Origin: Bacilli bacterium
GTDB lineage: Bacteria > Bacillota_I > Bacilli_A > ML615J-28 > CAG-698
NCBI GenBank assembly: GCA_017962745.1
Contig: JAGCUR010000013.1
Span: forward strand, 1,046 to 65,045
Length of the DNA: 64,000 nucleotides
Reading direction: 5' to 3'
The translations under genes and the position numbers were made by a program. The notes beneath the pieces are model-generated. The model made no database searches, was not told where the DNA came from, and saw only the letters and a list, made by a program, of their open reading frames with translations. Positions 1 through 41,179 of this stretch are shown piece by piece; within the stretch, counting starts at the first letter, position 1; the number at the start of each line of letters is the position of its first letter.

Positions 1-1078
1 GCTTAAACTCTACATCCCCTTTTACTTCCTCTAAGCTAATAGCATCCTGCTTATCAAGAGGTTCTGGAGTTGCATCGATTAGTTTAAATACCCTTTCACC
101 TGCTGCCAGTGCTGACTGGATATCCACAAATATATTAGCTATTTCGTTAATTGGTCCTGAGAACCTTCTTGAGTATTGAACAAAACTAGCAAGGTTACCA
201 ACTGTAAAGTTAGGATTAGTTAATAAAAGGATTGATCCAAACATACATACAAGTGATAACGATAAATTGTTAACAAAGTTAACACCAGGTCCCGTAATAC
301 TGCCATAAAACTCTGCTTTATAAGCAGCAGTTGTTGCTTTAGTGTTATACTCATCAAAGTTAGCTAATACTTTATCTTTAGTAGCATATGCCTTAATCGG
401 TTTAATTCCCGTGATCATTTCTTCCGAAAAACCATTTAACTCGCCTAAAGTTCTACTTCTAGCTCTAAACATCTTTTGCGTATGTTTAAGCATAAACCTC
501 GTAAATAAAAGTGAAATCGGAATCGTCACCGCAAATACTAATACTAATAGTGGTGATAAAATAATCATCATTATTAAAGAGCCAACAATTGTAATAGCTG
601 ATGTACAGATTTGGATTAAGTCACTAGAAAGCGATGTATTAATCGTATCAATGTCATAACTCATCCTTGAGATGATATCTCCTGTTTGATATGAATCAAA
701 GAAGGAAATCGGTAAGCTCATTAATCTAGAGAATGTATCAGCTCGCATCTTATAAACTATCTTTTTGCTCATCTTCATCATAATGATAGCTAGTACATAA
801 GAGAAGATACTAGATAAGATATAAAAGCCTAACATGAGCGATGTATAAATAAATATATCTTTTAAAATAACGCTATTTGCTTCCCCTACAATTAACGTTT
901 TTATATCGTCAACGATATGGCCAGATAATACCGGTCCAATCAAAGCAAACAGGTTTGCTAAAATGGTTAAGGCTAACGCTAGTAATAGCCACCATTTATA
1001 GTAATACATATAATCCCAAAGACGTCTTAATACATATTTAACGTCTTTTGGTTTTTCTTTTACTTTTGTGGATGACAT
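1..1078 (-). CDS. ABC transporter permease/ATP-binding protein, second subunit of a heterodimeric exporter (partial; 3' end beyond window start)
   Basis: Minus-strand ATG at 1076-1078 with a GAGG RBS 5 nt upstream. The frame stays open to the window edge. The by-eye translation (MSSTKVKEKPKDVKYVLRRLWDYMYYYKWW...) gives a hydrophobic N-terminal TMD typical of ABC exporters. It sits 11 nt downstream of the partner ABC gene. Confidence 0.6.
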   Translation of the reverse strand, partial: MSSTKVKEKPKDVKYVLRRLWDYMYYYKWWLLLALALTILANLFALIGPVLSGHIVDDIKTLIVGEANSVILKDIFIYTSLMLGFYILSSIFSYVLAIIMMKMSKKIVYKMRADTFSRLMSLPISFFDSYQTGDIISRMSYDIDTINTSLSSDLIQICTSAITIVGSLIMMIILSPLLVLVFAVTIPISLLFTRFMLKHTQKMFRARSRTLGELNGFSEEMITGIKPIKAYATKDKVLANFDEYNTKATTAAYKAEFYGSITGPGVNFVNNLSLSLVCMFGSILLLTNPNFTVGNLASFVQYSRRFSGPINEIANIFVDIQSALAAGERVFKLIDATPEPLDKQDAISLEEVKGDVEFK

Positions 1079-1088
1079 TCTACCTCTA

Positions 1089-2801
1089 CTATTCATGTTC
1101 ATCCCCCATTTGTAATTTATATGTATTCAAATATTCTTTGCTACTAGCAAGCAAATCATTATGAGTTCCGTATCCTACTTGTTTTCCATCTTCTAAAAGT
1201 AAGATATGGTTACAGTTAATAATTGAAGATATTCTTTCACTGATGATAATTGTAGTTGTATCTTTATTAAATTCTTTTAAAGCCTTTCTTAAATTAGCAT
1301 CAGTTTTATAATCAAGGGCACTTGAAGAATCATCAAGAATTAAAATATCAGGATTATTAGCGATTGCTCTAGCGATTAATAATCTTTGCTTTTGACCACC
1401 CGATACATTAGTACCTTTAGCCGCAATCATATAATCTAAGCCTTCTTTTTTAGAAAAGACAGTATCGGTTGCTTGTGCTACTTCGATGGCTTTAATAACT
1501 TGATCATCCGTTAAGTCACGATTGAATTTAATATTATCTTTAATCGAAGCGGAGAATAAAATATCATTTTGGAAAGCAACCCCAAACTTCTTCTTTAATT
1601 CTTCATCTTCCATCGATCTAATATCTTTACCATCGATTAAGATTTGGCCACTACCAATATCATATAGTCTTAAAAGTAAACTTATAATTGTTGTCTTACC
1701 TGATCCGGTTGGACCAATGATACCTAAGCTTTCGCCTTTCTTTAAAGCAAAGTTAATATCAGTTAAGTTATCGATTTTACCATTATAAGAAAAGTTTACA
1801 TTTTTAAACTCTACATGGATATCGCTATCTTCTTCATTAATATCTTCTTTCTTTAAATCTTCATCTAGACTAAAGACTGCTTCAATACGTTTTGCTGAAG
1901 CAATTGTACGGCTAGACATCGTAAAGATTCTAGTTACGCTTAACATTGCATTTAAAATTAAGTGGAAATAAGAAATAAAAGCAATGATCTTACCAACTTT
2001 AGTATCTCCACCAATTACTAAATATGCTCCTACAACTAATACACTTACTAAGCCGATATTTAAACATAAGTTAATAAGGGGACTTAAGCGCGCCATCATG
2101 TAACCAGCTTTTAATTCATTATCGATAACATGTTGGTTAACTTCTGAAAATCTTTCTTTTTCGTATTCTGTTTTTGATAATGCTTTAATCACTCTAATAC
2201 CAGTGACGCTTTCTCTTATATCTCTAACCATATCATCACTAGCATTTTGAATATCGGTATATAGTGGTATTCCTTTTTTAGAAATAAATACTGTAATTAA
2301 TACAATAAAAGGTAGGACTGCTAGTAATACTAAAGTTAGTTTCACATTTAATGTGAAAGTAACAATGATGCCACCAACTAGTAGAATCGGTGCTCTAACA
2401 CCAAGTCTTTGGATCATCCCCACAAAATGATGAACATTATATGTATCATTATTCATCCTTGAAATTAATGATGGAATCGTAATATCATCCATCTGCTTAG
2501 GACTCAAATCTTCAATACGTTTAAACAAATCATGCCTTAGGTCAGTTGTAACCATCATGGCAACTCTAGATGCCATTTGGTTAGCAAACATATTTCCTAA
2601 AAAGCAAGCTGCACTGCAGCCAATCATAATAATTCCATATATTATAATTGGCCTAATTTCCCCAAGTGGTACTAATTCATCAATGATAAATGATAAGATA
2701 TAGGGAATTACTAAATCCATTAAAGTTCCAAATATCTTAATCATTAAACCAATTAGCATTCTCGGAGTATATGGTTTAACATACTCTAATACTTTCTTCA
2801 T
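1089..2801 (-). CDS. ABC transporter ATP-binding/permease protein (multidrug-type exporter, fused TMD-NBD)
   Basis: 570 aa. Six-TM N-terminal half. Walker A GPTGSGKTT, ABC signature LSGGQKQR, Walker B ILILDD. Confidence 0.9.
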   Translation of the reverse strand: MKKVLEYVKPYTPRMLIGLMIKIFGTLMDLVIPYILSFIIDELVPLGEIRPIIIYGIIMIGCSAACFLGNMFANQMASRVAMMVTTDLRHDLFKRIEDLSPKQMDDITIPSLISRMNNDTYNVHHFVGMIQRLGVRAPILLVGGIIVTFTLNVKLTLVLLAVLPFIVLITVFISKKGIPLYTDIQNASDDMVRDIRESVTGIRVIKALSKTEYEKERFSEVNQHVIDNELKAGYMMARLSPLINLCLNIGLVSVLVVGAYLVIGGDTKVGKIIAFISYFHLILNAMLSVTRIFTMSSRTIASAKRIEAVFSLDEDLKKEDINEEDSDIHVEFKNVNFSYNGKIDNLTDINFALKKGESLGIIGPTGSGKTTIISLLLRLYDIGSGQILIDGKDIRSMEDEELKKKFGVAFQNDILFSASIKDNIKFNRDLTDDQVIKAIEVAQATDTVFSKKEGLDYMIAAKGTNVSGGQKQRLLIARAIANNPDILILDDSSSALDYKTDANLRKALKEFNKDTTTIIISERISSIINCNHILLLEDGKQVGYGTHNDLLASSKEYLNTYKLQMGDEHE

Positions 2802-2803
2802 AT

Positions 2804-3244
2804 CTAGTCCTCATAATTTAAGTCAATATAACTTGAAGCGTTATTAGCTACCTTTGTTAATAATTTGTTTAGTTCTTCTACTTCATCTTCTTTTAAGCCA
2901 TCAGTAATTATTTCATTAAATTTACCCATGGCTTCTTTAATATATGGCAAAGTATCATAGGCTTTCTTAGTTGGATATACTTTATATGCTCTTTTATCAT
3001 CTTCATTTACTTCACGATAAACGTATCCGGCATCAATTAATGTTTTGATACTTCTCGCAACGCTAGATTTATTAACATATACTTTTTTAGCCAAAGCATC
3101 TTGGCTAACTCCTTCGCTATGATTACATAAATAATAAATATACATATGATGCGATGGTAATAAATCAATATCCTTAAAAGCGATATTGCGATAAAGCATC
3201 GCACATCTTTCAGTTATGGAAATCCATCTTGTAATTCTTGCCAT
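2804..3244 (-). CDS. MarR family transcriptional regulator
   Basis: 146 aa. Winged-HTH region SQDALAKKVYVNKSSVARSIKTLIDAGYV. The gene sits immediately upstream of the ABC exporter pair. GAGGTG RBS. Confidence 0.85.
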   Translation of the reverse strand: MARITRWISITERCAMLYRNIAFKDIDLLPSHHMYIYYLCNHSEGVSQDALAKKVYVNKSSVARSIKTLIDAGYVYREVNEDDKRAYKVYPTKKAYDTLPYIKEAMGKFNEIITDGLKEDEVEELNKLLTKVANNASSYIDLNYED

Positions 3245-3254
3245 AGTTCACCTC

Positions 3255-3280
3255 TAATTAGTTGCATATGCAACTAATTA
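3255..3280. promoter_or_regulatory. 26-bp perfect palindrome TAATTAGTTGCATATGCAACTAATTA, a candidate MarR operator, with TGTATAAT extended -10 immediately upstream on the minus strand
   Basis: Read directly from the sequence. The palindrome lies between an extended -10 (minus strand, about 3281-3290) and the RBS of the MarR gene. This is the classic autoregulatory MarR layout. Confidence 0.6.
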
Positions 3281-3305
3281 CATTATACAACTATTCTTCT
3301 ACTTT

Positions 3306-3650
3306 TCAATAGATAATACAAAAATTCATTCCTTGATTAATAAATGCTTCAAATAAACCTAGGTTATATATAAAATCAGCTTCGGCGTTATTTCTCCATA
3401 AAAATATATAATCATCGTGATATTCTAAATATTTCTCGATTTCTAGTAACATCCTTGCAAGCCTATCACTAAAGCATTCCGATACAATATCATATTTAAC
3501 ACTTTTGCAGCCTTTAAAGATGGGGTATATTCTAATAATATTTAAGCCAATTAAAATGATCTCATCATCTATAAACTTAGAGCAGTTTTTACAATCAATA
3601 ATTTCTAATAAATCATTAAGATTTCTTCTTTTGTTTTTTATACAATACAT
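3306..3650 (-). CDS. hypothetical protein
   Basis: 114-aa ORF. I recognise no family. Cys-rich N-terminus (CKNCSKF). Confidence 0.4.
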   Translation of the reverse strand: MYCIKNKRRNLNDLLEIIDCKNCSKFIDDEIILIGLNIIRIYPIFKGCKSVKYDIVSECFSDRLARMLLEIEKYLEYHDDYIFLWRNNAEADFIYNLGLFEAFINQGMNFCIIY

Positions 3651-3696
3651 ATTAGCCTCCTAATATATATTTAACAAAACTCTCTCTTTTTTCTTA

Positions 3697-3727
3697 AACA
3701 AAAAAAAGTAGATACGATGTATCTACT
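3697..3727 (-). terminator. rho-independent terminator downstream of the LCP gene
   Basis: 8-bp stem AGTAGATA/TATCTACT with GATG loop, followed by a T-run on the minus strand. Confidence 0.6.
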
Positions 3728-3728
3728 T

Positions 3729-4718
3729 TTATTCTTCAGGTGCTTTATCATAGAATGTGGATATAACTAGTTCTTTTAAGTCTTCTTCGTAAGGAATAAA
3801 CTCGATTAAACCTTTGTTCTTTTGCGTATAGCCTTTAATTTGTTTAATTCCATTATAGTGGAATGTCTTTACATAATTTAAGATATCGGCCATATCCATA
3901 TATGTTACATCCATGCACACATAATTGTTAACGATATGCAAAGCATCTAAAATATCTGAGAAAGTATAATCGTTAGTTCTTGCTTTTCTAACTAATTCTT
4001 CCATATAGACTTGTTGACGGCGCATTCTAGAAATTTGCGTACCATCGCCAACTTCCATTCTAGCGCGAAGATATTTAAGGCAAGTATCACCAGTTAAAGT
4101 AATTGTTGCCCCTTCTTCCCAAGTAGGATCAATTACTGTTAAATCTTCTTCAAGAGTAATTGTTACTCCGCCTAGAAAATCATTAAGTAGGGGAACAGTA
4201 GTCATATTGATACCGATATATCTTTCAATATCAACACCCATCAATACTTTTGATGCAGCTCTACAAGTGTTTCTAAAACTCATATCGAGTCCATCACCAA
4301 CTGTATGAGCATAATCAATTTGCGTATACTTTGATCCGATTACTTTTCCGCTTAAACCTAAGACATCAACTTCTACCATTGTATCTCTACTTATTGGAAT
4401 AATTGTATAAGAACTATCTGTTAGATTAAATGATACTAAACAAATTAAATCATTTAATGCAGTATTGTTATATCCATTACTAGCTTTCATTTCACCAGTT
4501 GAATCAATACCAACGACTAAATAATTAACTGTGTCTTTAGCAATATATTTTTCACCATCGATATAAATGATTTCATGTTCCTTTGGCACATTTTGTGCTC
4601 TTTCAGTTTTACTACCTTGGGCAAATAAGAAATACCCACCAGCAATAGAACCTAAAGTAACCACTACACCAACAAGTGAAAGTATTATAATTAATAATAT
4701 TTTTCTTGCTTTTACCAT
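3729..4718 (-). CDS. LCP family protein (LytR-CpsA-Psr cell-wall glycopolymer ligase)
   Basis: 329 aa. N-terminal TM anchor. LCP motifs YLVVGIDSTGE and ...LNDLICLVSFN... Confidence 0.85.
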   Translation of the reverse strand: MVKARKILLIIILSLVGVVVTLGSIAGGYFLFAQGSKTERAQNVPKEHEIIYIDGEKYIAKDTVNYLVVGIDSTGEMKASNGYNNTALNDLICLVSFNLTDSSYTIIPISRDTMVEVDVLGLSGKVIGSKYTQIDYAHTVGDGLDMSFRNTCRAASKVLMGVDIERYIGINMTTVPLLNDFLGGVTITLEEDLTVIDPTWEEGATITLTGDTCLKYLRARMEVGDGTQISRMRRQQVYMEELVRKARTNDYTFSDILDALHIVNNYVCMDVTYMDMADILNYVKTFHYNGIKQIKGYTQKNKGLIEFIPYEEDLKELVISTFYDKAPEE

Positions 4719-4776
4719 AATCTAACACCTACTAATAATAAACTGCCTAGTTGCGCTAGGCAGTTTATAATTTTAA

Positions 4777-7029
4777 TTATTCTTCTGAGCCTTCATCACT
4801 TGGTGATAATAATTGTCCACCAGTTAATGCAACCATCTTAGCAACGCCTAATGTGTAAGCATCGCAATCAATTGTTAAGGCTTTATCCATCTTACCACGA
4901 GGTTTTAACTTGTAAGCTGTCATTGATTTATCTACACCTTTAACTTTTTCTTTGATTGCAGCTAAATCAACTGTAGCGCCTTCTTCAAATGCTTCACATA
5001 ATTGATCTGTGAATACTTCACCGAAGTTAGTCTTGTCAATTTCTCTATCTGAATGACCAACTAAGTTAAGTGCATCATTGTCATCCATATATTTGTTAAT
5101 GTTATAAACAGAAGTTTCTTTTAATAACTTGTATTGACGAGCTCTAGCTTTAGGTTTTTCGCCTCTTTCAACACTCATCTTAATTTGACCTTTAGCAATT
5201 AAAGTCTTTTCAGAATCGCCTCTGAACTCAGCTAATTCATCAATTGGTTCGTATTCTTTTTTCTTTTCAGCTTTAATATCTTTTAATAAGTCTTTTAAGA
5301 TGTTAAGAGCGTATTTAGTTCTTCTCATACTCTTAATCTTCATTACTGCGAAACCATCTTTATCAGGTTGTAATGGAGTCTTAGGATCGCTAGCGTATTT
5401 TTCAACATCAACTGTTAGATATAAGTTAAGTGTTTTACCACGAACCATTAATCTAGCAAATGTTTCTCTACTCTTTGCGAATGTTTCATGTTTCCATGAT
5501 ACTCTATTAGTAATTTGATATGAGCATAATAAGTCTTTAATTAATTGATAGCATTGTTGCATGCTTTCATCTAATGCTACTAATTTAGCAATGTGAGATT
5601 TATTGTAGTTGATTGATAAGTATTCATCTTTTTCTTCTACAACTTCTTCTTCAGCAGCGGCAGCAGCAGCAACGATTGGAACAACAACTGGTTCAACTTC
5701 TGGAGCAGCTTCTTCTTCAGGTGCTTCTTCAGCTTCTTCTGGAGCAGCTTCTTCTTCAGGTGCTTCTTCAGCAGCTGGTTCTTCAGCTACAGGTTCTTCT
5801 TCAGCAGGTGCTTCTTCCTCAGCTGGAGCTTCTTCTTCGTTAGCTTGTTCTTGTTCTTCTTCTGGAGCAGCTTCTTCTTCAGGTTCTTCTTCAGCAGGTT
5901 CTTCTTCTTTATCGTTCTTATCTCTCTTGAAGAAAATATAGATAACTAATAAGATGATGATGATTACTAATAAGATGATGATAACGATGAACATCCAGAT
6001 AGGACCTGAACTTCCACGTTCACCTTTTTCACCTTGATCACCTTTGTCACCTTTTTCGCCTTGTTGACCTTGTTGGCCTTGAGAACCTTCTGGACCTTGA
6101 GGACCTTGAGGGCCTTGAGGACCTACAGCACCTGGATCACCTTGTTGACCAGCAGCAGAGATACCTGTATCTGCGCCATTGATTACCCAGTTACCAGTAG
6201 TAGGATCAATTTCAATAGTTGGTGTATCACCAGCTTGACCTGGTTCACCTTGAGCAGCGATTCCAGTGTCTACGCCATCAATTTGCCAGTTACCATTATC
6301 ACCAATAGTGATTAGAGGACTATGTCCATCTTCACCAGCAGGACCTTGGATTGCAGTAGGAACTGCATTTTCATCAGGTTGTAAGAATGCAACTGGACAT
6401 AAGTGACTGAATTCAACTTCTAATTTTCCGTTTTCATCATCGTATGCAACTTTATCAGAATCAACAACTGTCCATTCTTTAGTTGCTTCATTTTGGTGAA
6501 TAACGACTGGTGATTTACCATTAGAAGATTGATAATCAAATTCGAATTTAATAGTTCCGCCAGCAGCGAATACTGCAGCGATTTCATCAGTTACTGATAA
6601 ATCGAATACTTGTTCAGCATCGAAGTCTTCAGATTTGTACATTTTACCATCAACTAATAAATTAGCTAATGCAGATTGAAGGGCTTCTTGACTTTCTTTT
6701 TGATCGCCTTCCAATGCAGCACCACTGAATATTTCACGTAAAGCTTGTGTTGCTTCGCTTAAAGCTTGAACTTTTTCAGGGTCTCCACCTTCTCCATCTA
6801 TTGGAGTGATAGTAACCTTTGATAAGTCAACACTAGTTTCAGATCCATCAGCATTAATCACAGTTGCAGTTGCTACTTCTGGAGTCTCAGCTGCGAATGG
6901 GCTACCAGCAGGGCTGCCAGTAGGACTTGCAGTAGGACTTGGTTCAGCAAATGCAACAGGGATACTAACTAATACTAATAACATTGCTACTATTACAACA
7001 AATAGCATTTTGAAATTAAATTTTCTCAT
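4777..7029 (-). CDS. type-I membrane protein with collagen-like (Gly-X-Y) ectodomain, acidic E/P/A-rich cytoplasmic linker and unknown C-terminal domain
   Basis: 750 aa. Signal peptide MRKFNFKMLFVVIVAMLLVLVSIPVAFA. GXY run GPQGPQGPQGPEGSQGQQGQQGEKGDKGDQGEKGERG. Twice-repeated motif GNW[QV]I[DN]G[VA]DTGI. Single TM IWMFIVIIILLVIIIILLVIYIFF. Then (EEAPE)n low complexity and a roughly 330-aa C-terminal domain. Confidence 0.8.
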   Translation of the reverse strand: MRKFNFKMLFVVIVAMLLVLVSIPVAFAEPSPTASPTGSPAGSPFAAETPEVATATVINADGSETSVDLSKVTITPIDGEGGDPEKVQALSEATQALREIFSGAALEGDQKESQEALQSALANLLVDGKMYKSEDFDAEQVFDLSVTDEIAAVFAAGGTIKFEFDYQSSNGKSPVVIHQNEATKEWTVVDSDKVAYDDENGKLEVEFSHLCPVAFLQPDENAVPTAIQGPAGEDGHSPLITIGDNGNWQIDGVDTGIAAQGEPGQAGDTPTIEIDPTTGNWVINGADTGISAAGQQGDPGAVGPQGPQGPQGPEGSQGQQGQQGEKGDKGDQGEKGERGSSGPIWMFIVIIILLVIIIILLVIYIFFKRDKNDKEEEPAEEEPEEEAAPEEEQEQANEEEAPAEEEAPAEEEPVAEEPAAEEAPEEEAAPEEAEEAPEEEAAPEVEPVVVPIVAAAAAAEEEVVEEKDEYLSINYNKSHIAKLVALDESMQQCYQLIKDLLCSYQITNRVSWKHETFAKSRETFARLMVRGKTLNLYLTVDVEKYASDPKTPLQPDKDGFAVMKIKSMRRTKYALNILKDLLKDIKAEKKKEYEPIDELAEFRGDSEKTLIAKGQIKMSVERGEKPKARARQYKLLKETSVYNINKYMDDNDALNLVGHSDREIDKTNFGEVFTDQLCEAFEEGATVDLAAIKEKVKGVDKSMTAYKLKPRGKMDKALTIDCDAYTLGVAKMVALTGGQLLSPSDEGSEE

Positions 7030-20376: not shown

Positions 20377-21525
20377 TTATTGTAAAAACTCATATATAAA
20401 GAATCTATGGCTATCAATGTCTACCGTTAGAACTAGATATTCATCATATTTGAAGTAATCTATTTCGTTTTCTTTCAATCCTTCAATAGAATATACAAAA
20501 CAATAATCTATTTCCTCGTTGCTAATCGTTAGAGCAACATCGTATGGAAAATCGCTTGGATTACATTTTATAAAATCATTATTATTTTTAAGTTCATTAA
20601 ACTTTATAGCAAATTCATCTTCATTTGTTGTTGTAACAACAATTTCTCTAGTTGATTTGACAACTCTGCTTTCAATAATTGCATTTTTTGGTAATTGATA
20701 ACTTATTTTACTTTCAATATTCTTGATGATATCTGAATCGTAAGTAACAGGTGATACCCTTTGAAGGACTACGGAAAATGTGAACGCTAATAAAGCAAAC
20801 GATATTACTAATATTGATGTAATAAAAAACTTCTTCGCTTGTAGTAACAATCTCTTCCAAAATGCAGCAAAACATAACAAAAACATTGCTGGGATCATAC
20901 TTAATATGAATATCCACGATAAACTCATTACTTTGTCAACATACCAATAATAATCATTAGCTATTATTTTTGTTATCAAAAGACCAATAGGAAATACGTT
21001 CAAAGTGGTAATAAACAATAAATCCGTTATGGATGATGTATACACAATCTTTCTATCACTAATTTTACATCTACTCATATGCACATCATTGATACCTTGT
21101 TTACAATGCATGCTTAAGTAATCAATATATTCCTTTCGTTTATAAATTTTTACGTCATACATCTTTTCATTTGCGATGATATTACAATCAAAATATCCTC
21201 GAGAATTTAATGTATACATATACTTTTTTATGTCTGAAAGTTTAATAATATCGTTTTTTATACCTCTTAATATGTATAGCTTTTCATCTGTTCCAATCAC
21301 TTTATACTGAGTTTCGAATAGCACTATGAAATATATGATGGATAAAAAAAGCACAAAAATAATTGGTATTATGCGAACAAAAAAGTTTACTTTTCTATCC
21401 ATCAGCCAACTCGTCAACATTGACACAGCGAAAATAATTGATGGTAAAAAAATAGCAACCGCAGTAGCATTTTTGTTATAATCCACAAAAGAATAAATAC
21501 TTGAATCTTTGCTTTTATTAACCAT
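20377..21525 (-). CDS. polytopic membrane protein, candidate immunity protein for the orphan Rhs toxin cassette
   Basis: About 382 aa from the ATG at 21523-21525 (AGGTG RBS). The track ORF starts at an upstream GTG. Several TM helices. It overlaps the 3' end of the orphan CT by 8 nt. Confidence 0.6.
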   Translation of the reverse strand: MVNKSKDSSIYSFVDYNKNATAVAIFLPSIIFAVSMLTSWLMDRKVNFFVRIIPIIFVLFLSIIYFIVLFETQYKVIGTDEKLYILRGIKNDIIKLSDIKKYMYTLNSRGYFDCNIIANEKMYDVKIYKRKEYIDYLSMHCKQGINDVHMSRCKISDRKIVYTSSITDLLFITTLNVFPIGLLITKIIANDYYWYVDKVMSLSWIFILSMIPAMFLLCFAAFWKRLLLQAKKFFITSILVISFALLAFTFSVVLQRVSPVTYDSDIIKNIESKISYQLPKNAIIESRVVKSTREIVVTTTNEDEFAIKFNELKNNNDFIKCNPSDFPYDVALTISNEEIDYCFVYSIEGLKENEIDYFKYDEYLVLTVDIDSHRFFIYEFLQ

Positions 21526-22381
21526 AGTATGCACCTAACAAATTATCATTATCGAATTCTTTAACACAGCAGTATCTACCGCCTCCGCAAAAGCAACTAA
21601 CGAGTACAGTTCCTGCAACACCAACAATAATAGCACCGGTGGCTTGCTTTCCCTCAATCGCCATTGTTGAGTAAATTCCATCTGAAGAATACCCAGATTT
21701 AAAACCCATTGTTCCATCTTTTGATATTGTGACACCATATACAACACCATTTTTTAATATAACATCGATTCCAGCTGTTTTTTTTGATTGATAAAGTTCA
21801 ATTTTTACAGAATCACCGATTGGAAATCCAGAGCCAAAATAGGTTGTATCATTTCCCCGATCAACAAATGAATATCGTCCACCGTAGTTTTCGTGACTTT
21901 CTCCAACTGTGAAGGTGATGTTAACTATAGTATTACCAAACAGTTCATTACTGATCAAAGAATGTGTATAATGTGTCCTATCTGATACGTTTATTACCAC
22001 GTGACAACTAAGTAACAAGCCACCATTTTGCTGAAATGCGCTTGTCATTTTTTTATTAGAGGATAATAAAAATATACCAGTTGTTCTTCTCGTTATAGTC
22101 ACACTTGAATTTTCATAAACCAAAAGTATAGGATTATTTAAACAATACGCATATAGATTTAATCCACCAGCTACATTAGCATTTAAGTAATCCACACTAT
22201 CATACGATATAAATCTACCCCAATTAGGATTATAATATCTAGTTTTTAAATAATATAAATTATTTTCATAATCTATATAATATGATTTATAAATAATATG
22301 ATTAATATTACTTAAATCAACGCCTGGTAAATGACTTACATCAATTATATTACCATATGCATCATAAGTATATTCTAACAC
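21518..22381 (-). CDS. orphan Rhs C-terminal toxin cassette (5'-truncated, no ATG; about 80 aa of conserved Rhs core end plus about 207-aa novel CT)
   Basis: First about 80 aa (VLEYTYDAYGNIID...RYYNPNWGRFISYDSVDYL...NLYAYCLN) are near-identical to residues of the large Rhs protein. The apparent start is GTG, which equals the Val of the parent sequence. Divergent tail with a C-terminal Gly/Cys-rich hydrophobic segment. Confidence 0.7.
   Translation of the reverse strand: MLEYTYDAYGNIIDVSHLPGVDLSNINHIIYKSYYIDYENNLYYLKTRYYNPNWGRFISYDSVDYLNANVAGGLNLYAYCLNNPILLVYENSSVTITRRTTGIFLLSSNKKMTSAFQQNGGLLLSCHVVINVSDRTHYTHSLISNELFGNTIVNITFTVGESHENYGGRYSFVDRGNDTTYFGSGFPIGDSVKIELYQSKKTAGIDVILKNGVVYGVTISKDGTMGFKSGYSSDGIYSTMAIEGKQATGAIIVGVAGTVLVSCFCGGGRYCCVKEFDNDNLLGAYYG
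22142..22381. repeat. about 240-bp direct repeat (copy 2) of the rhs core-end region, about 90% identical to 23841-24080
   Basis: Judged by direct DNA comparison of the two segments. Confidence 0.8.
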
Positions 22382-22437
22382 AATCTTTTTATATTTTTAA
22401 GATTTTGGCTTCATATTATTTGCAATTAAACATTGCA

Positions 22438-23310
22438 TTAATTGCGATTTGAAATATACTCATATCTTTCATCAGAAAAGACACTTTTATTAAAATAAAC
22501 AAATTGTATACTATTATTTTCTAAATCGTATTCATATACTATATCAGAAGTAAAAATGTTATTCAGGCCAAGCCGATAAATAAGTAAAATATGACCATAA
22601 GAAATATATATTTTACATGGCTTATATTCAACTTTTGACATATCTTCGCGGTATTGAGAGTTTTCAAAATAGTCATTATTAATGATAGTAACTTCGTCTG
22701 TCAAAAGATCTTTTATTTCAAAAGATTTTCTATCATCGGTAATTTTTACATCAATATTATATTTCTTTTTTTGCTCCTCATATCTAATATCTTCTAGATT
22801 GACGTTTTCGCCTTTTGAATAATTGTAATATCTTTTTTCTATCACATCATATACATCAATAATATTTGATTCATCTTTAGTACTATATAAAATATAAAAA
22901 CAATTATCAAAAGTCATATACTTTGGGTTCTTTTTTATTGATTCAGTGGTGTATAACTGATTTACTACATTATCAAGCATATTCATCGAATAAAAAGTTA
23001 TTTTTACATTTGACAAACCGCGCTCATATAAATAGAATACTTCATTTGATGTAAGAATTATTTGATTATTGTCATAAATCTTGTTTATAGCAAAAATTGA
23101 TTTTTCATATTCTCTATATTCAACAGAAGCACTTGTTATATCAGCTATATTTTCGTTATTTTCGTATTTTTCGAATATTTTTTCAATTTTGTCTTCAGTT
23201 CGATATCTTTTTTCATCTCTTATATATAGCCATAGTTCAAAAATTACAAATAGGATGCTTACTACTATTATTGGGAAAATTATAAAGTAAATCTTTTTCT
23301 TAATTGCCAT
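22438..23310 (-). CDS. candidate immunity protein for the main Rhs toxin (N-terminal TM anchor)
   Basis: 290 aa. AGGAGGG RBS. ATG overlaps the rhs 3' end by 31 nt. N-terminal TM FIIFPIIVVSILFVIFELWLY. I recognise no family. Confidence 0.6.
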   Translation of the reverse strand: MAIKKKIYFIIFPIIVVSILFVIFELWLYIRDEKRYRTEDKIEKIFEKYENNENIADITSASVEYREYEKSIFAINKIYDNNQIILTSNEVFYLYERGLSNVKITFYSMNMLDNVVNQLYTTESIKKNPKYMTFDNCFYILYSTKDESNIIDVYDVIEKRYYNYSKGENVNLEDIRYEEQKKKYNIDVKITDDRKSFEIKDLLTDEVTIINNDYFENSQYREDMSKVEYKPCKIYISYGHILLIYRLGLNNIFTSDIVYEYDLENNSIQFVYFNKSVFSDERYEYISNRN

Positions 23311-26300
23311 GGGTACCCTCCTATAAAATTGTAAAAATCTTGGGTTGCAGCAAAAGGATTAAAGTTCCAATAAAGAAGTTGCATACCAGCCGAACACACT
23401 ATTTCATCTATCTCTGTTCTCCCGATAATATCGTTATAAATTGTATGCCCCACATCCAAATCTTTAAATCGTGGATTTTTGGTCAAAGCGTATGCGATAT
23501 TATGACAAAGCCACTCAAACTCGACACCTATAGACGAGCCATCAATAATATCTCTCGTTTTTTCTTTAAAATAATTCAAATATATGCTGTATCCATATTT
23601 TATCCATGGGGTATGTATTTTTGACGAATCTTTCAAAGTCACATTACCATCTTTTACTATGATGTCGTCTTCTTCATTTATATTGCCCATAGCAATAATA
23701 TCCGATGTTGTTGATGCAACAGCGCCTATCATAGTGGCAATAGGATCTGCTAGTACTGCACCAATATACATAACGATCGTCCAAAATTTTCCCCAATCAA
23801 ATGTCCCTTCTGGATCGCAGCCATTTACAGGATCATTCAAGCAATATGCGTATAAATTTAATCCACTAGCTATATTAGCATTTAAGTAATCTACACTATC
23901 ATATGATATAAACCTACCCCAATTAGGATTATAATATCTAGTTTTTAAATAATATAAATTATTTTCATAATCTATATAATACGATTTATAAATAATATGG
24001 TTAATATTACTTAAATTAACGCCTGGTAAATGATTTACATCAATAATATTCCCATATGCATCATAAGTATATTCTAAAACAATATTACCAATGCTGTTAG
24101 AAATGTATTTAATTACTCCTAATATATCTTTAATATAGCAATATGTACTACCATTATATATAAAGCCATATACATTATTATCTTTATCATATAAATACTT
24201 AACAATATAAAAACTATTATTATTTAAATTTGTTATCTTTTCCCCAACTAAATTACCTTTAATATCATAAACATATTTAAATGATTTGTCATCAGTTACT
24301 TTTTTAATTCTTCTGCCTAAATGATCATAATCATAACTAATAGTACCATAGCTCTTTAGTTTCATCCCTTCCCAAGTTAAATTGGTATTGTTGATTGTTG
24401 ATGGGAGGGAATTGGTATAAGAATCATATGTGATGATTTCAATATCATTATTATTTTCATCTGTTATTCTAGTTAATGCATTTTTGTTTAGATTATCTTC
24501 ATATTTGTAATTTCGTGTATTAACAACAACATCGTTTACTTTAATCTCTCTTTTTAAAATGTTACCACTATTATCATATGTATATACTCTTTCTTGAGCA
24601 GAGTTTTGTTCTAAATTCTTGTCATGTGTTAAGTAACCTAATGCATTATATTCATATTGTTTAATAATATTATTATTTCTTTTGATCTTTTTTATTCGAT
24701 TCATTGAATCATATATGTATTCTAATGTCATATTATTATTTAAGTAAGATATGATTTCATTTTCAACTTTTGATGTTCCATTATAATCATATGCATATGA
24801 TGTCTTTTTGTAATTATATGTATTACATATAATTAGATTATCATCATGTATTATATTTCTTTTTGATAATCTATTTAGGCTATCATATTTATTTTCTAAT
24901 AATGAATGATTTAAGAACATCATATCGTTTTGTAAAGAACTGATACTTTTATATGTTCTATCGATGCATAGCATCTCAATAAAACCATCTAATGGCTCAC
25001 TTAAATCATTGGTATTACCTAACTGTAATTTTAAATAATTACTATCCAGATTTATACTTAATGCATAGTCGTCTATATAATTATTATTAAGTACAACTCT
25101 ATAATTAAATGTACCATTATTATAATAATACGAAAAAGCTAATGTATTTACATCATTATTAATAACTAAACTATTGCTAATTAAATTATTATTTAAATAT
25201 AGTTTATTATTAATTATTGATAATTTAATAGCTTGATTATCTGCAAATAATCTAAATAATGTTTTTGATTCAGCTTCATTAATATTATTCTCGTTTATTG
25301 TAAACCTTAATAAAATTGTACCTGAATTCGTTAAGCCTGTCTGATAAATTACTTTATTTTTATTTACGTATAGATTACATCTATGCGACTTTTTATTATA
25401 AATAAAGGAATTATCAATAAGTTCGTTATTATCTTTAGTTACATCAATTAAATCCACTTGCAAAGTATGCATATTTGGTAAAGTTTTAAAATCATTAAAT
25501 AATGGTAAAACTTTATAATTATCTAATAGCGATTGATTGAACAATGTAGTTGAAGTAAAGCCTGTGAATGTATAATTACCATCATATTCAATATTACCAA
25601 ATACATAGTTTAGACCAAAATATGATAATTCATATACGCCATTAAAGTTAATCCCTCTATGTGCAATAATCCCATATACATATAAATTAGCACCATAAGT
25701 TTGATTATCGGAAGTGCATCCAATTGAAAGTTTTTTAAATGTTACATTACTAACACTACAATTATAATCTTTATTGTTAATGAGTAAATGCAATGTATTA
25801 CTATCAAGCACTAAAGATATCGCATATATTTTATTAGTATCTAATTCAATATATTCATTGATTAACTGATTATTACCATAATTGCAACTTATATAATGAG
25901 TACTAGAATTATAAGTTACATATAGATTAATATCACTTGAACTTTTGAAAGATGCAATTATGCCTCCTGCTTTAATTTTTGAAAAGACTGTAACGCCATT
26001 AATTTGTTTATTTGTAATATCGTAAGTTAATCTAGTTTGCGTGCTTATAAGTTTTATTATTGAAACGCAGTGCTCACTAACAATTAAAGGGTTAACATTT
26101 GATGTAATAACATCTTCATCTATTCCCCCGTTATCGCCTTTATAAACTAAATTACTACTTTCTAAATCAAAAAAACACGAATAATTAGCATTATGATCAT
26201 TTGATCTTGCTAGCCTTATCTTTTCATAATAATGCTCAGGTGCAAATACATTGCTTTCTTTAGAATCAGTAAATGCTTGAAACGTCTCATTACTATCGTT

Positions 26301-28817
26301 AAATATCAAATTATATAATCTAATAATACTATTTGTATTATCACGAAGCATATTTGATACAATTTCGTTACTTTCAATTTCGCACAAATTATCTTCTTCA
26401 TCATATGCTAAATTAATGGTAGAATCATTTGTATTATTATGGATTTCTTTTAATCTATTATATGCATCATATAGAAAACTAAATTTACTAATATCTGTAC
26501 TAGTACCATGATCTCTATATTTTACTGTCGATAAATTATATTTGTTATCATAATCAAAAATGTATTTATCCCCATTATCACCATACTCTTTTGATTTAAT
26601 TAAAGATAGATGGGGAAGAGATGATGAATCTTCATTTACATATTTAATATTTATTAAACTTTTATATATAATCTGATAGGTATCATCATATATTAATCTT
26701 ACACTTGATAATCGATTATCATTATTATAAACGCTTTGTACCTCATTATCGCGTCTGTCAGTTAAAACATCAACTGCTAAATTAGATCCATAACTTATTA
26801 AATTTTGATCTTTAAGTACATCGTTGTCATCTTTGATGACTACGCTATTTAATAAATTCTTTTGATTATATGAATAAAAATATTGGCTACCATCTGGTAA
26901 TACCTTTCTTTCCACTAAATAATGTTTTGTCCCATTACTTTCATATTCTATTTGATAATCTTCTACTTTTTCTCTAGAAATGAATTCCCCATTTGATTCA
27001 TATTCATATTCTTTTCTTAGATATATTTTTCTATCTTTGAAAACAGATGCATCATACTCATGACTAGTTAATACTTCGTTTGTAACTTCGTTATAATTAT
27101 TGTATTGGTAATTTGTTTTATTGCCAAATAGCCCTGCTTGTTCTTCTATTAAATCATCACTCACTAAGTTATTATCTCTAGTAGCAATATAGTTATAATC
27201 ATAATGCGTTATATTATATTTTCCAAATGCACTAATTACTTTATTGTTTTCATTTATTAAATATTTAGTTTCGTTTTTACCAACTAATATATTCGTAATA
27301 TTATTGTTATTATCATAAGTATATGCAAAACCTGCTATTTGTTTAGTTAAACATATTGAATCAAATGTGTATGTGGCTCCACTTCCTTTTATAAAGAATA
27401 ATACTTTGATTTTGTCAAAACCAACTTCTGGATTAATCTCAAAAAAGAATAATTCTTTATAATCCGTGTTACTTGGCAACGCCTTAGAATAAGTTATCCA
27501 CTCATTGTTACCTTTTAATAATGATATTTTAACTGTCGCGCTAGTTCCTTCTACTTCACATTTAGTTAAACATCTAAATACATAAGTATCTAAAGGCGTA
27601 CCGCTAACATTAATTATTTGATATGTACTGCTTACAAAAGGTATGGAATTGTTTTGTATTTTTAATAGTTTTGAAGATGTTACATATTCATTATTGTAAT
27701 AATAATTAGCATCAGCATTATTTATATATGATACATTAGCATTATCAGACTGCCAAGATGGTGTACTTCCTTGGCAAAAACCATCACTTATTAAATTATT
27801 AATTTCTGTTTGATGTAAATAATTATTTTTAAAAGCATTTGATTTAAAAATAATATTTTTGCGTGAATCAAATCTTTGCCCTGCTATATATTTATTTGTA
27901 TCAATTATATGATTAATTAAATAATTATCATCAAAATAATAATGAGTATGCATATTATTATAACTAACAACTGTGTGATAATTATTTATTAAATTAATAG
28001 AGGTTACATCAAAAGTATTATCATTAGTGCCTCTACCTTCATATACTGTATATGTACCATTTGTTGGGTGTTCTACTAATATTCTTTCTTTTGTGATTGT
28101 ATTGTACATTTGATAAACCGGATCGAATGATAATTGTATATTATTAACTAGATTATTTGTTCCATTATTAATAATATAATAATTAATATTGTTTATATAA
28201 TTTGAAGAAAAAGTAATTATAACTTTGCGTACGTTTACATAATCTTTTCTAATTGTTGCTTCGAGTGCCCCATAAATCATTGGCATAAAATCTATTGCTT
28301 CACCATAATTATTATAAATAGATTCTATGTAGTCTTCATCATAACTGAAATGGATTTTATTAATTGTATTATTTCTATCTTCAATTAATATTAATTTGTA
28401 TGAAGAATCAAATGTATATACACTATCAATATAGACAATCTTTTTTTGATTGTTCTCTATTACCATATATGAAGCAAGGTCAATATTTTCATATCTATTA
28501 TTTTGATTGATGTAATCTTCTGTTGACATATCAGCGTTTGTAACTACATATTTATCATTTTGACTATCGTATGATAATTCTTTCATAATAGACAGTTTAC
28601 AACCAGTTTTAAAATTACAATCAACTTCATTGCTTGAGGAAGTATATATTAAAGATAAATTTATTGGAGATAATTTATAAGGGGAATTATAAAGGGGAAT
28701 TATAAAATGAAGATTATCAAAGTTTTTTGATAAATTAATATACGTGTTAGATCCATCGCTTATAGATGCATTGAAATATGTTCCATATGATTTGATACCT
28801 TGATTAGCCATAATCAT
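23280..28817 (-). CDS. Rhs / YD-repeat polymorphic toxin (1845 aa)
   Basis: Many YD-type repeats (YDxxGN..., YxYDxxGR...). Rhs core end RYYNPNWGRFISYDSV...NLYAYCLNDPVNGCDPEGT. A variable CT of about 175 aa follows. AGGAGT RBS. No signal peptide. Confidence 0.9.
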   Translation of the reverse strand: MIMANQGIKSYGTYFNASISDGSNTYINLSKNFDNLHFIIPLYNSPYKLSPINLSLIYTSSSNEVDCNFKTGCKLSIMKELSYDSQNDKYVVTNADMSTEDYINQNNRYENIDLASYMVIENNQKKIVYIDSVYTFDSSYKLILIEDRNNTINKIHFSYDEDYIESIYNNYGEAIDFMPMIYGALEATIRKDYVNVRKVIITFSSNYINNINYYIINNGTNNLVNNIQLSFDPVYQMYNTITKERILVEHPTNGTYTVYEGRGTNDNTFDVTSINLINNYHTVVSYNNMHTHYYFDDNYLINHIIDTNKYIAGQRFDSRKNIIFKSNAFKNNYLHQTEINNLISDGFCQGSTPSWQSDNANVSYINNADANYYYNNEYVTSSKLLKIQNNSIPFVSSTYQIINVSGTPLDTYVFRCLTKCEVEGTSATVKISLLKGNNEWITYSKALPSNTDYKELFFFEINPEVGFDKIKVLFFIKGSGATYTFDSICLTKQIAGFAYTYDNNNNITNILVGKNETKYLINENNKVISAFGKYNITHYDYNYIATRDNNLVSDDLIEEQAGLFGNKTNYQYNNYNEVTNEVLTSHEYDASVFKDRKIYLRKEYEYESNGEFISREKVEDYQIEYESNGTKHYLVERKVLPDGSQYFYSYNQKNLLNSVVIKDDNDVLKDQNLISYGSNLAVDVLTDRRDNEVQSVYNNDNRLSSVRLIYDDTYQIIYKSLINIKYVNEDSSSLPHLSLIKSKEYGDNGDKYIFDYDNKYNLSTVKYRDHGTSTDISKFSFLYDAYNRLKEIHNNTNDSTINLAYDEEDNLCEIESNEIVSNMLRDNTNSIIRLYNLIFNDSNETFQAFTDSKESNVFAPEHYYEKIRLARSNDHNANYSCFFDLESSNLVYKGDNGGIDEDVITSNVNPLIVSEHCVSIIKLISTQTRLTYDITNKQINGVTVFSKIKAGGIIASFKSSSDINLYVTYNSSTHYISCNYGNNQLINEYIELDTNKIYAISLVLDSNTLHLLINNKDYNCSVSNVTFKKLSIGCTSDNQTYGANLYVYGIIAHRGINFNGVYELSYFGLNYVFGNIEYDGNYTFTGFTSTTLFNQSLLDNYKVLPLFNDFKTLPNMHTLQVDLIDVTKDNNELIDNSFIYNKKSHRCNLYVNKNKVIYQTGLTNSGTILLRFTINENNINEAESKTLFRLFADNQAIKLSIINNKLYLNNNLISNSLVINNDVNTLAFSYYYNNGTFNYRVVLNNNYIDDYALSINLDSNYLKLQLGNTNDLSEPLDGFIEMLCIDRTYKSISSLQNDMMFLNHSLLENKYDSLNRLSKRNIIHDDNLIICNTYNYKKTSYAYDYNGTSKVENEIISYLNNNMTLEYIYDSMNRIKKIKRNNNIIKQYEYNALGYLTHDKNLEQNSAQERVYTYDNSGNILKREIKVNDVVVNTRNYKYEDNLNKNALTRITDENNNDIEIITYDSYTNSLPSTINNTNLTWEGMKLKSYGTISYDYDHLGRRIKKVTDDKSFKYVYDIKGNLVGEKITNLNNNSFYIVKYLYDKDNNVYGFIYNGSTYCYIKDILGVIKYISNSIGNIVLEYTYDAYGNIIDVNHLPGVNLSNINHIIYKSYYIDYENNLYYLKTRYYNPNWGRFISYDSVDYLNANIASGLNLYAYCLNDPVNGCDPEGTFDWGKFWTIVMYIGAVLADPIATMIGAVASTTSDIIAMGNINEEDDIIVKDGNVTLKDSSKIHTPWIKYGYSIYLNYFKEKTRDIIDGSSIGVEFEWLCHNIAYALTKNPRFKDLDVGHTIYNDIIGRTEIDEIVCSAGMQLLYWNFNPFAATQDFYNFIGGYPWQLRKRFTL
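23841..24080. repeat. about 240-bp direct repeat (copy 1) inside the rhs gene, homologous to 22142-22381
   Basis: Judged by direct DNA comparison. Encodes VLEYTYD...AYCLN. Confidence 0.8.
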
Positions 28818-39169: not shown

Positions 39170-41179
39170 TTATCCTCCTAATTCTAATGTGAAATTACTC
39201 CAATTTTGTGGTTCTAAATTTGTGCCATCATTTTCAAACAAGATGAAACAGCATTCTCCATCTTCCAATTCTTCTAAAGACACAAACAATCTTGTTCCTT
39301 CAAACATTTCGTTAGCATCTATAAACACTGGATATTCGTTACCATTTTTATTTAACAATAAATAACTCCAGCTATATTCATTTTCTCCAACGTTCAATGA
39401 GATATATGGTTCTGGATATTGATCTTTATCATACAAATGTTCAACACTAACTGGAACATAAGTGGCTGATTGATATGTGATAATACCACTAGACACCATG
39501 GCTGTCCCATTGGCATATACTATATAACTATAATTGCTTCGATATTCTCCGCCATTATCATATAAAATAGAATACTTTTGGCCAGTTGCACTTTCATGCA
39601 TTTCTAAATCAAATGATTTATTATATCCCTTATCACTAGTTAGATTAATGCTTAAAGCTTCGCTTTCATCATATTCACCTATGTCCACAATAGCTAATAT
39701 GTTGTGTATAAAAGATATAATTTGTACATTACTTATACTAGATGACGCTACATTATAAACAATATTCTTTTCATCATAGTAAACACTATAATTATCAATT
39801 AATAATTCATACCTATAATATTCATATTCGCTAATTTGATAATTTAATTCATAATAATACATATCATCAAATTGTGGGTTAGTGATTGTTTCTTCTAAGA
39901 AAACATTATCATCTTTATAAACAACTAATTTAACTATCTCATTTTCACTAAATTCACTAAAAGCTAAATTAACATATACATCCTTATTTTCATTATTAAC
40001 GTCTAATTCATATAATACTGTATCCCAAATATAGCCTAATACTATTTCTTCTTGGTAAATAACATTATTATTAGCATAAATGACTGCATCATATTTACCA
40101 TCAGTTAAATTGTTTACTTCACCATCGCATCTATAATATTCTTCTTCTTGAATTATATTATCTAATTCAATGCTATTAACTAGATTACCATCTAAATATA
40201 AATTTAAGCTAATTATTTCATTATCTACATAATTATCAAAATCAATATAGTAATAGAAAGTTAAATCACCATATTCATATCCAAAACAACTAGCAGTTGT
40301 ATAAGTTGGCATTTGTACATCTACTTTATTAATCATTTCTAAATTATTATTAATATATAGACATACATTATATTCTCCATCACTATTTACGCTAAATGAA
40401 TTATCATAAATATAACTATATTCATTTTGCATAACTTGATCAATTGGAATCGTTTCTATAATCTCTCCTTCTTTTTCAAGTTGTAAAAGAACATAATCAT
40501 CACTATTAAACTTGCTAAATTCTACGCTTACACAAATTAGTTCATCAACATAATTAGCATCCATTTTACTTACTATGGTTTGTGAATTCCTCGATTCAAT
40601 TACATAATCATTTTCATAAAGTGTATTAAAACCGCTTACTACACTTATATTATAAGATACGTTTTCTTTTAGCCCTTCCACATCCGCAAAATACATGTAT
40701 TGTTTTTCTTCTTCAGGGCCTTCCTCAAATGCTTCAATTTTATAAACTCGATCAGTAAATTCATTTTTAATTACCAATTCTAAGTTATCTTCTTCATAAT
40801 ATTCTGAAAATATTATGCTTATAAATAACATATTTTCGTAGTCTTCAATAAAGACATCATTAATTTTACTCTTTGGGCCAAAGATAAAACTAGTACCCAT
40901 AACTACTGCCATTGTAATAACAAGGGCTGAAGATAATATTTTAGTAAATATACTTGATAACTTTCTTGCTTTCAGACTTGATTTATTATCATTAAATTCT
41001 TTAAAGGAAGTGAATTCTTGGAATTCTCTATTGGAATAATTAGCACTATTATATTCATTATAATCATGATATTCGTTGGTAATAGCTTTTAGGCTATTAG
41101 AGCTTTCGATCTTATTTTTTTCATTATCCAAGCTAATCACTTCCTTTCTTATATAATCTAAGTTCATTATAACATACAA
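39170..41179 (-). CDS. hypothetical membrane-anchored surface protein (Tyr/Asn-rich beta-repeat ectodomain)
   Basis: 669 aa. About 80-aa cytoplasmic N-terminus, one TM (ILSSALVITMAVVMGTSFIF), then repetitive Y/N/E-rich modules. Confidence 0.55.
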   Translation of the reverse strand: MYVIMNLDYIRKEVISLDNEKNKIESSNSLKAITNEYHDYNEYNSANYSNREFQEFTSFKEFNDNKSSLKARKLSSIFTKILSSALVITMAVVMGTSFIFGPKSKINDVFIEDYENMLFISIIFSEYYEEDNLELVIKNEFTDRVYKIEAFEEGPEEEKQYMYFADVEGLKENVSYNISVVSGFNTLYENDYVIESRNSQTIVSKMDANYVDELICVSVEFSKFNSDDYVLLQLEKEGEIIETIPIDQVMQNEYSYIYDNSFSVNSDGEYNVCLYINNNLEMINKVDVQMPTYTTASCFGYEYGDLTFYYYIDFDNYVDNEIISLNLYLDGNLVNSIELDNIIQEEEYYRCDGEVNNLTDGKYDAVIYANNNVIYQEEIVLGYIWDTVLYELDVNNENKDVYVNLAFSEFSENEIVKLVVYKDDNVFLEETITNPQFDDMYYYELNYQISEYEYYRYELLIDNYSVYYDEKNIVYNVASSSISNVQIISFIHNILAIVDIGEYDESEALSINLTSDKGYNKSFDLEMHESATGQKYSILYDNGGEYRSNYSYIVYANGTAMVSSGIITYQSATYVPVSVEHLYDKDQYPEPYISLNVGENEYSWSYLLLNKNGNEYPVFIDANEMFEGTRLFVSLEELEDGECCFILFENDGTNLEPQNWSNFTLELGG

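Follow-up and report, generated by a model that had tools for sequence, protein, structure and literature searches.

A recurring Rhs toxin-tip family with a predicted membrane anchor and a predicted membrane-tethered partner protein

Rhs toxin/immunity cassettes are well known, and there are few characterized tips whose site of action is the cell envelope in Gram-positive or wall-less species. The C-terminal fragment of Pseudomonas aeruginosa Tse5 (Tse5-CT) is a pore-former, and the Tse5 immunity protein is an integral membrane protein. In Streptococcus intermedius the lipid II phosphatase TelC, an LXG toxin of a type VII secretion system (T7SS), acts from the outside and is met by an exported immunity protein, TipC, an arrangement that is also predicted for the wider Lipocone tips (PMC12419801). 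The C-terminal domain (CTD) of the Bacillus inaquosorum teneurin-like protein (BiTLP) contains a transmembrane (TM) segment, shows toxicity only if exported and leads to uptake of propidium iodide (PMC13018210), while LrhA/LrhI of Listeria monocytogenes provides a precedent for an outside-acting tip with an exported immunity protein (PMC10327511). Here we analyse a 64,000-nucleotide stretch from the genome of a Bacilli bacterium (contig JAGCUR010000013.1; hereafter the window), which carries a full-length Rhs/YD-repeat polymorphic toxin gene encoding 1,845 amino acids (23280..28817, from the list of open reading frames (ORFs) and the translation). We find that the tip of this protein is a member of a real, recurring and unnamed family of toxin tips on Rhs proteins, for which there is no Pfam or NCBIfam entry. 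Coordinates are those of the window unless a related locus (L001 and so on) is named, and those of the Rhs, partner and orphan genes and of their parts refer to the minus strand.

The tip and its family

The shell of the Rhs protein ends in an Rhs-associated core domain at residues 1585-1671 (23805..24065; NCBIfam TIGR03696 Rhs_assc_core, positions 1-75 of 76, E 1.5e-17), and residues 1364-1678 match the sequences of solved Rhs and teneurin-like shells in the PDB. At the end of the core, residues 1662-1672 (23802..23834) read DPVNGCDPEGT (NDPVNGCDPEGT) and contain the motif PxxxxDPxG. The role of this motif in Rhs proteins is established: it directs the C-terminal autoproteolysis that frees the tip, and it is the expected cleavage site here, where cleavage is predicted. 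The 173 residues that follow NDPVNGCDPEGT (nucleotides 23283-23801) are the last of the protein and are unrelated to the core, as expected of a variable tip, and the same junction of core end and tip is present in relatives of the tip. An earlier, sequence-only reading of the window had placed the start of the tip after DPEGT, with a hydrophobic helix first; the letters that it quoted agree with ours, and so does its description of the junction.

Relatives of the tip were sought by an exhaustive HMMER search of 1.84 billion cluster representatives. This gave 123 clusters (at 50% identity) at E<=1e-3, 59 of which are found at E<=1e-10; a word-indexed homologue search returned one match, a fragment, with the single sequence and five with a profile. 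The domain is C-terminal in every member, the Rhs core end precedes it in about 67 of the 70 members that have upstream sequence (there are three exceptions), and the full-length carriers are Rhs proteins of 1,200-2,200 amino acids. Public names extend no further than 'RHS repeat-associated core domain-containing protein', examples being WP_162849745.1 of Anaeroplasma bactoclasticum and MBQ9900648.1 of an Acholeplasmatales bacterium, and relatives occur in genomes of Anaeroplasma/Acholeplasmatales, Erysipelotrichaceae, Bacilli and Clostridia. When one genome per species was scanned with a profile from a 10-sequence subset of our 53-sequence family alignment, 12 loci were found, in Anaeroplasma, 'Bacilli' and Bacillota metagenome-assembled genomes (MAGs), Erysipelotrichaceae, Oscillospiraceae, Christensenellaceae and another Clostridia MAG. 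Because the tip has 123 relatives, a recurring layout of helix plus domain and a recurring kind of downstream gene, we regard it as more than a product of chance.

The elements of the tip are found in the same order across the family: the DPxG motif, a hydrophobic stretch, D34 (numbering of the tip in the window), a beta-hairpin ending in N58-S59, a series of motifs and two helices, the second of which carries D155. The hydrophobic stretch, WGKFWTIVMYIGAVLADPIATMIGAVASTT, makes up the first ~30 residues of the tip in the window; its residues 3-31 (23709..23795) are a candidate membrane anchor, on the strength of a best 19-residue Kyte-Doolittle (KD) window of 1.75 and of the helices in an AlphaFold2 (AF2) model. 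In the family the stretch between DPxG and D34 has a median length of 22 residues, and its KD value is >=1.6 in 72% of 94 members. The sequence-only reading had seen in this segment a glycine-zipper helix. The small-xxx-small motifs G14xxxA18 and G26xxxS30 are indeed present in the window, and a hydrophobic helix is found family-wide; the zipper, however, belongs to the window sequence only, since the N-terminal helix is conserved in hydrophobicity alone and no glycine is conserved there in an alignment of 99 sequences. In the closest relative, P0003, the helix is likewise split (by ANP, where the window has ADP), and glycine is present at 14 and 26, with A18 replaced by leucine and S30 by glycine.

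After the helix comes a compact, mostly alpha-helical domain at residues 34-162 (23316..23702), delimited by the AF2 model and by column conservation. Its conserved polar set includes D34, N58, S59, N76, K83, D84, G88, G92, E96 and W97, with further conserved residues at H100, N101, D116, G118, T120, D124 and D155, and the family motifs read TPWxxYGYSFYLNH, TKDxIxG88(S/T)xxG92xxxE96-W97-x-x-H100-N101-x-A-Y and D116-x-G118-x-T120-I-F/Y-x-D124. In the 99 sequences G88 is present throughout (99/99), E96 and H100 are each found in 98, S59 in 97, N101 in 96, W97 in 95, D155 in 92 and D34 in 90; E96 and H100 are also invariant in the 53-sequence alignment. The signature E96-W97-x-x-H100-N101, which in the window is EWLCHN (23499..23516), is on the basis of this conservation the candidate catalytic centre.

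With the tip sequence alone, AF2 gave a mean predicted local distance difference test (pLDDT) score of 35, and the confident model came from the 53-sequence alignment: mean pLDDT 89.8, predicted template modelling score (pTM) 0.79 and pLDDT values of 89-98 across residues 21-160. The model contains helices at 3-16 and 20-41, a hairpin at 47-56, helices at 65-78 and 90-107, a short strand at 115-117 and helices at 131-147 and 149-161. Only the N-terminal segment is TM-grade; the other helices have a mean KD of ~0.6-0.7, calculated by hand from the alignment column values. The structure prediction and Foldseek search proposed as a check by the sequence-only reading have thus been run, with a confident model and no clear fold of a soluble enzyme toxin that has a cytoplasmic immunity partner.

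The tip had also been called an undescribed domain with no nuclease, deaminase or ADP-ribosyltransferase motif, and our searches bear this out. The tip in the window has no Pfam or NCBIfam match at E<=0.1, no PDB sequence match and no Foldseek neighbour in the PDB, and the profile of the family has no match at E<=10 among PDB chains; Pfam and NCBIfam scans of the tip detect no signature of the three activities, and no curated peptidase or lipase model is matched either. Weak matches to the Pfam PrsW-protease family (PF13367) occur in two of the 53 aligned members, with a best E of 5.7e-4; CPBP/PrsW proteins carry EExxxR / FxxxH / HxxxN motifs in TM helices, and the tip family has one TM-grade helix and a different motif spacing (F-E-W-x-x-H). 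Several catalytic motifs were compared by eye. A GxSxG lipase or patatin was rejected, as the residue in the middle of G88-x-x-x-G92 varies among T, S and A, and the spacing does not fit PAP2, HKD, HExxH/aspzincin or the DxYD motif of colicin M. The family sequence EWxxHNxAY resembles CCxxHDxCY, the motif of secreted phospholipase A2 (sPLA2); with no Foldseek support, this resemblance was rejected as well.

The downstream partner gene

The gene directly downstream encodes 290 amino acids (22438..23310) and is a candidate for the cognate immunity gene, from its translation and from homology. It starts with ATG, overlaps the Rhs gene by 31 nucleotides up to the Rhs stop codon and has a Shine-Dalgarno sequence, AGGAGGG (23316..23322, by reading of the sequence), 5 nucleotides upstream. 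This Shine-Dalgarno sequence lies within the last Rhs codons, which by sequence is translational coupling. The predicted protein begins MAIKKK and continues with an N-terminal TM anchor at about residues 7-29 (23224..23292; KD 2.77), placed with its N-terminus inside, and a predicted extracytoplasmic domain of ~260 residues. The sequence-only reading was therefore right to note an overlapping downstream protein with an N-terminal TM anchor.

The pairing is a property of the family and not of the window only. In all 12 genomic loci the partner ORF starts between -36 and +11 nucleotides from the toxin stop codon, and its length is 270-293 amino acids in eleven loci and 210 in L010. These ORFs are homologous to the 290-residue ORF of the window, six by phmmer (E 6e-26 to 3e-8) and the others via blastp chains. 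In four loci (L003 at ~560-575, L008, L010 and L012), a toxin tail N-G-G-F-stop and an immunity start M-E-D-S/F-K share a 13-nucleotide overlap; the NGGF tail and the MED start constrain each other, because both are read from the same nucleotides. A 1.2-kb metagenome contig (L001) carries, with a start in the same -36 to +11 range, an apparently intact copy of the partner gene, 95% identical to that of the window and with the AGGAGGG sequence conserved, behind a toxin remnant (1-444) that is 5'-truncated, starts at residue ~69 with 76% amino acid identity and has stop codons upstream. By its sequence, L001 has the pattern of an orphan immunity gene retained after decay of the toxin, which is typical of toxin/immunity cassettes.

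The N-termini of the partner proteins indicate on which side of the membrane they lie. Canonical lipoboxes (L-S/T-A/S/C-C) are present in seven homologues, atypical cysteine motifs (LQGC, LRGC) in two, and K/R-rich N-termini with a single TM helix after them in three homologues and in the window copy. A lipobox or hydrophobic N-terminus is thus found in 13 of 13 partner proteins, a feature that is shared with the partners of other toxin classes and is not diagnostic. Applying the lipoprotein and signal-anchor rules to these N-termini, we place the ~260-residue domain outside the cytoplasmic membrane. The membrane immunity protein proposed in the sequence-only reading is accordingly kept as a membrane-tethered protein, and its location is amended: it does not merely sit in the membrane, since seven of the 12 homologues are lipoproteins and the ~260-residue domain would be extracytoplasmic. 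That domain has no Pfam match. Positions 91-211 of the alignment of the immunity family give a weak match to a TolB beta-propeller profile (PDB 7mx5, E 0.035), and the exported domain may be propeller-like.

Proposed activity and its alternatives

From these observations we hypothesize, with a probability of about one half, that the tip is a toxin that anchors itself and works at the outer face of the target membrane, that it is likely to be an interfacial enzyme and that it is paired with a membrane-tethered, extracytoplasmic immunity partner. In this scheme autoproteolysis of the Rhs shell at DPEGT would free a tip with a hydrophobic helix of 20-30 residues almost at its start. The helix would enter the cytoplasmic membrane of the target from the outside and leave the ~135-residue helical domain tethered to the outer leaflet, where a pocket around E96-W97-x-x-H100-N101, D34, N58-S59, K83-D84, D116, D124 and D155 would be catalytic. 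Candidate substrates would be the head group of a phospholipid or glycolipid, or an envelope precursor linked to polyprenyl phosphate. The co-translated 290-residue protein would protect the producer and its kin, presumably by binding the toxin domain outside the cell.

We argue for catalysis because a glutamate and a histidine lie one helical turn apart and are accompanied by several Asp and Asn residues, by Ser59 and by a glycine-rich loop; and, instead of a pore, for an interfacial enzyme whose substrate is a lipid or is linked to one, because the family has a single TM-grade segment and its partner a large soluble domain. The membrane-associated toxin that the sequence-only reading had thought plausible is thereby supported, although the near-invariant polar residues point to an enzyme and not to a simple membrane-perturbing helix. 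As to the substrate, the toxin and an intact partner occur together in wall-less lineages (Anaeroplasma bactoclasticum, Acholeplasmatales), which hints that the target is a component of the membrane and not peptidoglycan. We hold only tentatively, and on the whole doubt, the stronger version in which the tip is a new enzyme fold, tethered by its own helix, that attacks from the outside and breaks down a universal lipid of the membrane or a universal polyprenyl-phosphate carrier.

Several observations weigh against a self-anchoring, outside-acting enzyme. In the window the helix is of marginal hydrophobicity (KD 1.75) and is split by Ala-Asp-Pro, and in 28% of the members the KD value of the segment is below 1.6. 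The clustering of the conserved residues in one pocket is an assumption. Among the 53 aligned members there are only scattered single matches to Pfam or NCBIfam and no convincing match to a curated family, so that no catalytic family can be assigned, and the best Foldseek match of the AF2 model in the PDB has an E of 1.4, with nothing below E=1 in the PDB or BFVD. Immunity genes could persist in wall-less hosts by mere linkage. Finally, the export route of the Rhs protein is not visible, because its N-terminus has no recognisable signal peptide, LXG or secretion-system domain and no domain match, and the scanned genes that flank the island (~1-41 kb of the window) are housekeeping genes and include no secretion system.

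Pore-forming or ionophoric tips usually have a polytopic membrane protein for immunity and few invariant polar residues. The same hydrophobic helix could serve such a non-enzymatic activity if, together with amphipathic helices of the domain, it inserted, oligomerized and dissipated the membrane potential or permeabilized the cell. That the helix stands at the extreme N-terminus of the released fragment, that the modelled domain is largely alpha-helical and that neither sequence nor Foldseek assigns an enzyme family are all consistent with this explanation, for which the CTD of BiTLP, with its TM segment, its membrane deformation in simulations and its uptake of propidium iodide only if exported, offers a precedent. 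We nevertheless consider it unlikely. About a dozen near-invariant polar residues, with a glutamate and a histidine on one face of a helix, would be unusual for a pore-former; the family has a single TM-grade segment; and the partner consists of one anchor or lipobox and a ~260-residue non-hydrophobic exported domain, in place of the usual polytopic immunity protein. Nor does the profile of the 53-sequence alignment find a PDB match at E<=10 in a library that includes Tse5 and teneurin-like entries.

An enzyme of the outer leaflet could also be a divergent Lipocone member (TelC, CapCone or Min-Wnt-like) that cleaves phosphate-linked head groups, for example of lipid II. The tip family has an acidic residue at -4 to its conserved histidine (E96xxxH100), as in the ClaspCone-CapCone-TelC clade; many members have an Asp with an Asn at +4 after a small residue and then Gly (D155-L-I-V-N-G-G); and in the AF2 model the beta-hairpin and extra strand resemble the 'clasp' of CapCone. 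Polymorphic toxins do carry Lipocone tips, and the immunity proteins of these are all TM proteins or lipoproteins (PMC12419801). The profile comparison does not bear out the resemblance. HHalign, run with sequences from the source data of that paper on CapCone-2, CapCone-1, ClaspCone-2 and Min-Wnt, with prok-SAA, prok-TelC and VanZ-1 outside the comparison, gave P values of 0.11-0.62 for the tip family against these four, whereas five of the six control pairs among the four reached 5e-4 to 2e-7 (the sixth, Min-Wnt against CapCone-2, gave 0.28). Furthermore, the aperture of the Lipocone four-helix cone is lined by His (H2), Glu (H3) and Asp (H4), and the would-be H3 helix of the tip family has no conserved glutamate, the signature motifs of the tip family are not found in the sequence tables of PMC12419801, and structures of TelC, SAA and Wnt are not among the Foldseek matches in the PDB. 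Lipocone membership is therefore not supported by the sequence comparisons and seems to us quite improbable, while a very remote kinship is possible.

Least probable of all is a toxin that acts in the cytoplasm, with the helix as an element of translocation or entry (compare the entry domains of CdiA-CT) or of packing in the shell and with a downstream protein that is not its immunity protein: many Rhs tips do act in the cytoplasm, but the partner family stands beside the tip, with start and stop overlapping, in 12 of 12 loci, most partners carry lipoprotein signals, which put their domain on the outside and out of reach of a toxin in the cytoplasm, and the Pfam and NCBIfam scans, which also covered NADases, show no signature of this or of the other cytoplasmic activities named above.

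If the favoured reading of a self-anchoring enzyme is correct, a catalytic tip of this kind with a lipid-tethered exported inhibitor would define an antibacterial activity and an inhibitor fold that are both new. If, in addition, the substrate is universal, Mollicutes-like gut bacteria without a wall (Anaeroplasma, Acholeplasmatales) would also depend for survival on a surface lipoprotein dedicated to this purpose. The family is found in gut Erysipelotrichaceae, Clostridia and Acholeplasmatales/Anaeroplasma, and it could shape competition in the animal and human gut and point to an exposed, conserved membrane target. Toxin and partner are small, easily expressed and easily tested.

Orphan modules, island context and known systems

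Downstream of the partner gene lies an orphan Rhs tip module of 287 amino acids (21518..22381), composed of a core-end stub (TIGR03696, E 8e-16 at residues 6-86), a beta-rich tip unrelated to that of the main gene and a C-terminal TM segment. It branches from the main gene ahead of the DPxG motif and so is without DPxG; its C-terminus has the TM segment and a cysteine-rich tail (VSCFCGGGRYCC). Overlapping its end is a gene for a polytopic membrane protein of 385 amino acids (20377..21534), whose translation has five hydrophobic regions and which is a candidate for immunity to the orphan tip; this protein has no Pfam or NCBIfam match. The two may be a second, unrelated membrane-directed toxin/immunity pair without a family match.

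The first 87 codons of the orphan (22127-22387) and the core end of the main gene (23826-24086) form a direct repeat of 261 nucleotides that is 92% identical, by sequence the substrate expected for recombination that swaps tips. The tip family is itself found on such modules: in the window and in L006 the full-length or main Rhs protein carries it, and in L004, L011 and L012 it stands as an orphan that follows other Rhs genes. In L004, an Oscillospiraceae MAG, a full-length Rhs gene with a different tip (3-4976) is accompanied by an orphan module at 5623-6384. L012, a Bacilli MAG, has two tandem copies of the tip module (4276-5067 and 5740-6429). Four features of an Rhs toxin/immunity cassette are found here, namely an Rhs core, a DPxG motif followed by a tip, a downstream gene that travels with the tip and orphan modules with a core-end stub.

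The Rhs island, at ~20.3-28.8 kb, has a G+C content of 22-30% against 31-38% in the flanks, which suggests horizontal acquisition, and it is bordered by a gene for a major facilitator superfamily (MFS) transporter on one side and by ABC-F and TypA genes on the other. Elsewhere in the window, a LytR-CpsA-Psr (LCP) protein is encoded at 3729-4718, which suggests that the host has a cell wall, a 750-residue protein with collagen triple-helix repeats at 4777-7029 (minus strand) and a 669-residue protein, without a Pfam match at E<=1e-5, at 39170-41179 (minus strand).

Compared with the systems described at the outset, the tip resembles Tse5 in being an Rhs-encapsulated, autoproteolytically released and membrane-targeting C-terminal fragment, with the reservation that cleavage and target are predicted here; Tse5, however, is delivered by a type VI secretion system (T6SS) in a Gram-negative bacterium, and we found no sequence similarity between it and the family. 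LrhA differs in belonging to a T7SSb locus with WXG100-like partners, none of which were found in the scanned parts of the window; the comparison with LrhA is by locus and length only, and there is no protein of 1,656 amino acids among the family matches. With BiTLP the locus shares a Bacillota YD/Rhs shell, a C-terminal fragment with a predicted TM helix and an immunity gene directly downstream, although the CTD of BiTLP comprises only ~90 residues, as implied by the lengths of PDB chains, against 173 here, gives no match to the family profile up to E 10 and has no reported counterpart of the conserved set of E, H and D residues.

The differences from TelC lie in the Rhs shell, which takes the place of the LXG domain, and in the hydrophobic anchor at the N-terminus of the tip, for which TelC has no equivalent. 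Neither sequence nor profile nor Foldseek comparison found similarity to TelC or the Lipocone tips, and the immunity family is unrelated to theirs in size (~260 residues) and possibly, given the weak TolB beta-propeller match, in fold. What the tip has in common with TelC and the Lipocone tips is a small, helical toxin domain in which His, Asp and Glu residues are conserved, a membrane-tethered or lipoprotein immunity protein that faces the outside and action from the outside on a lipid-linked substrate, which has been shown for TelC and is predicted for the other Lipocone tips and for the tip described here.

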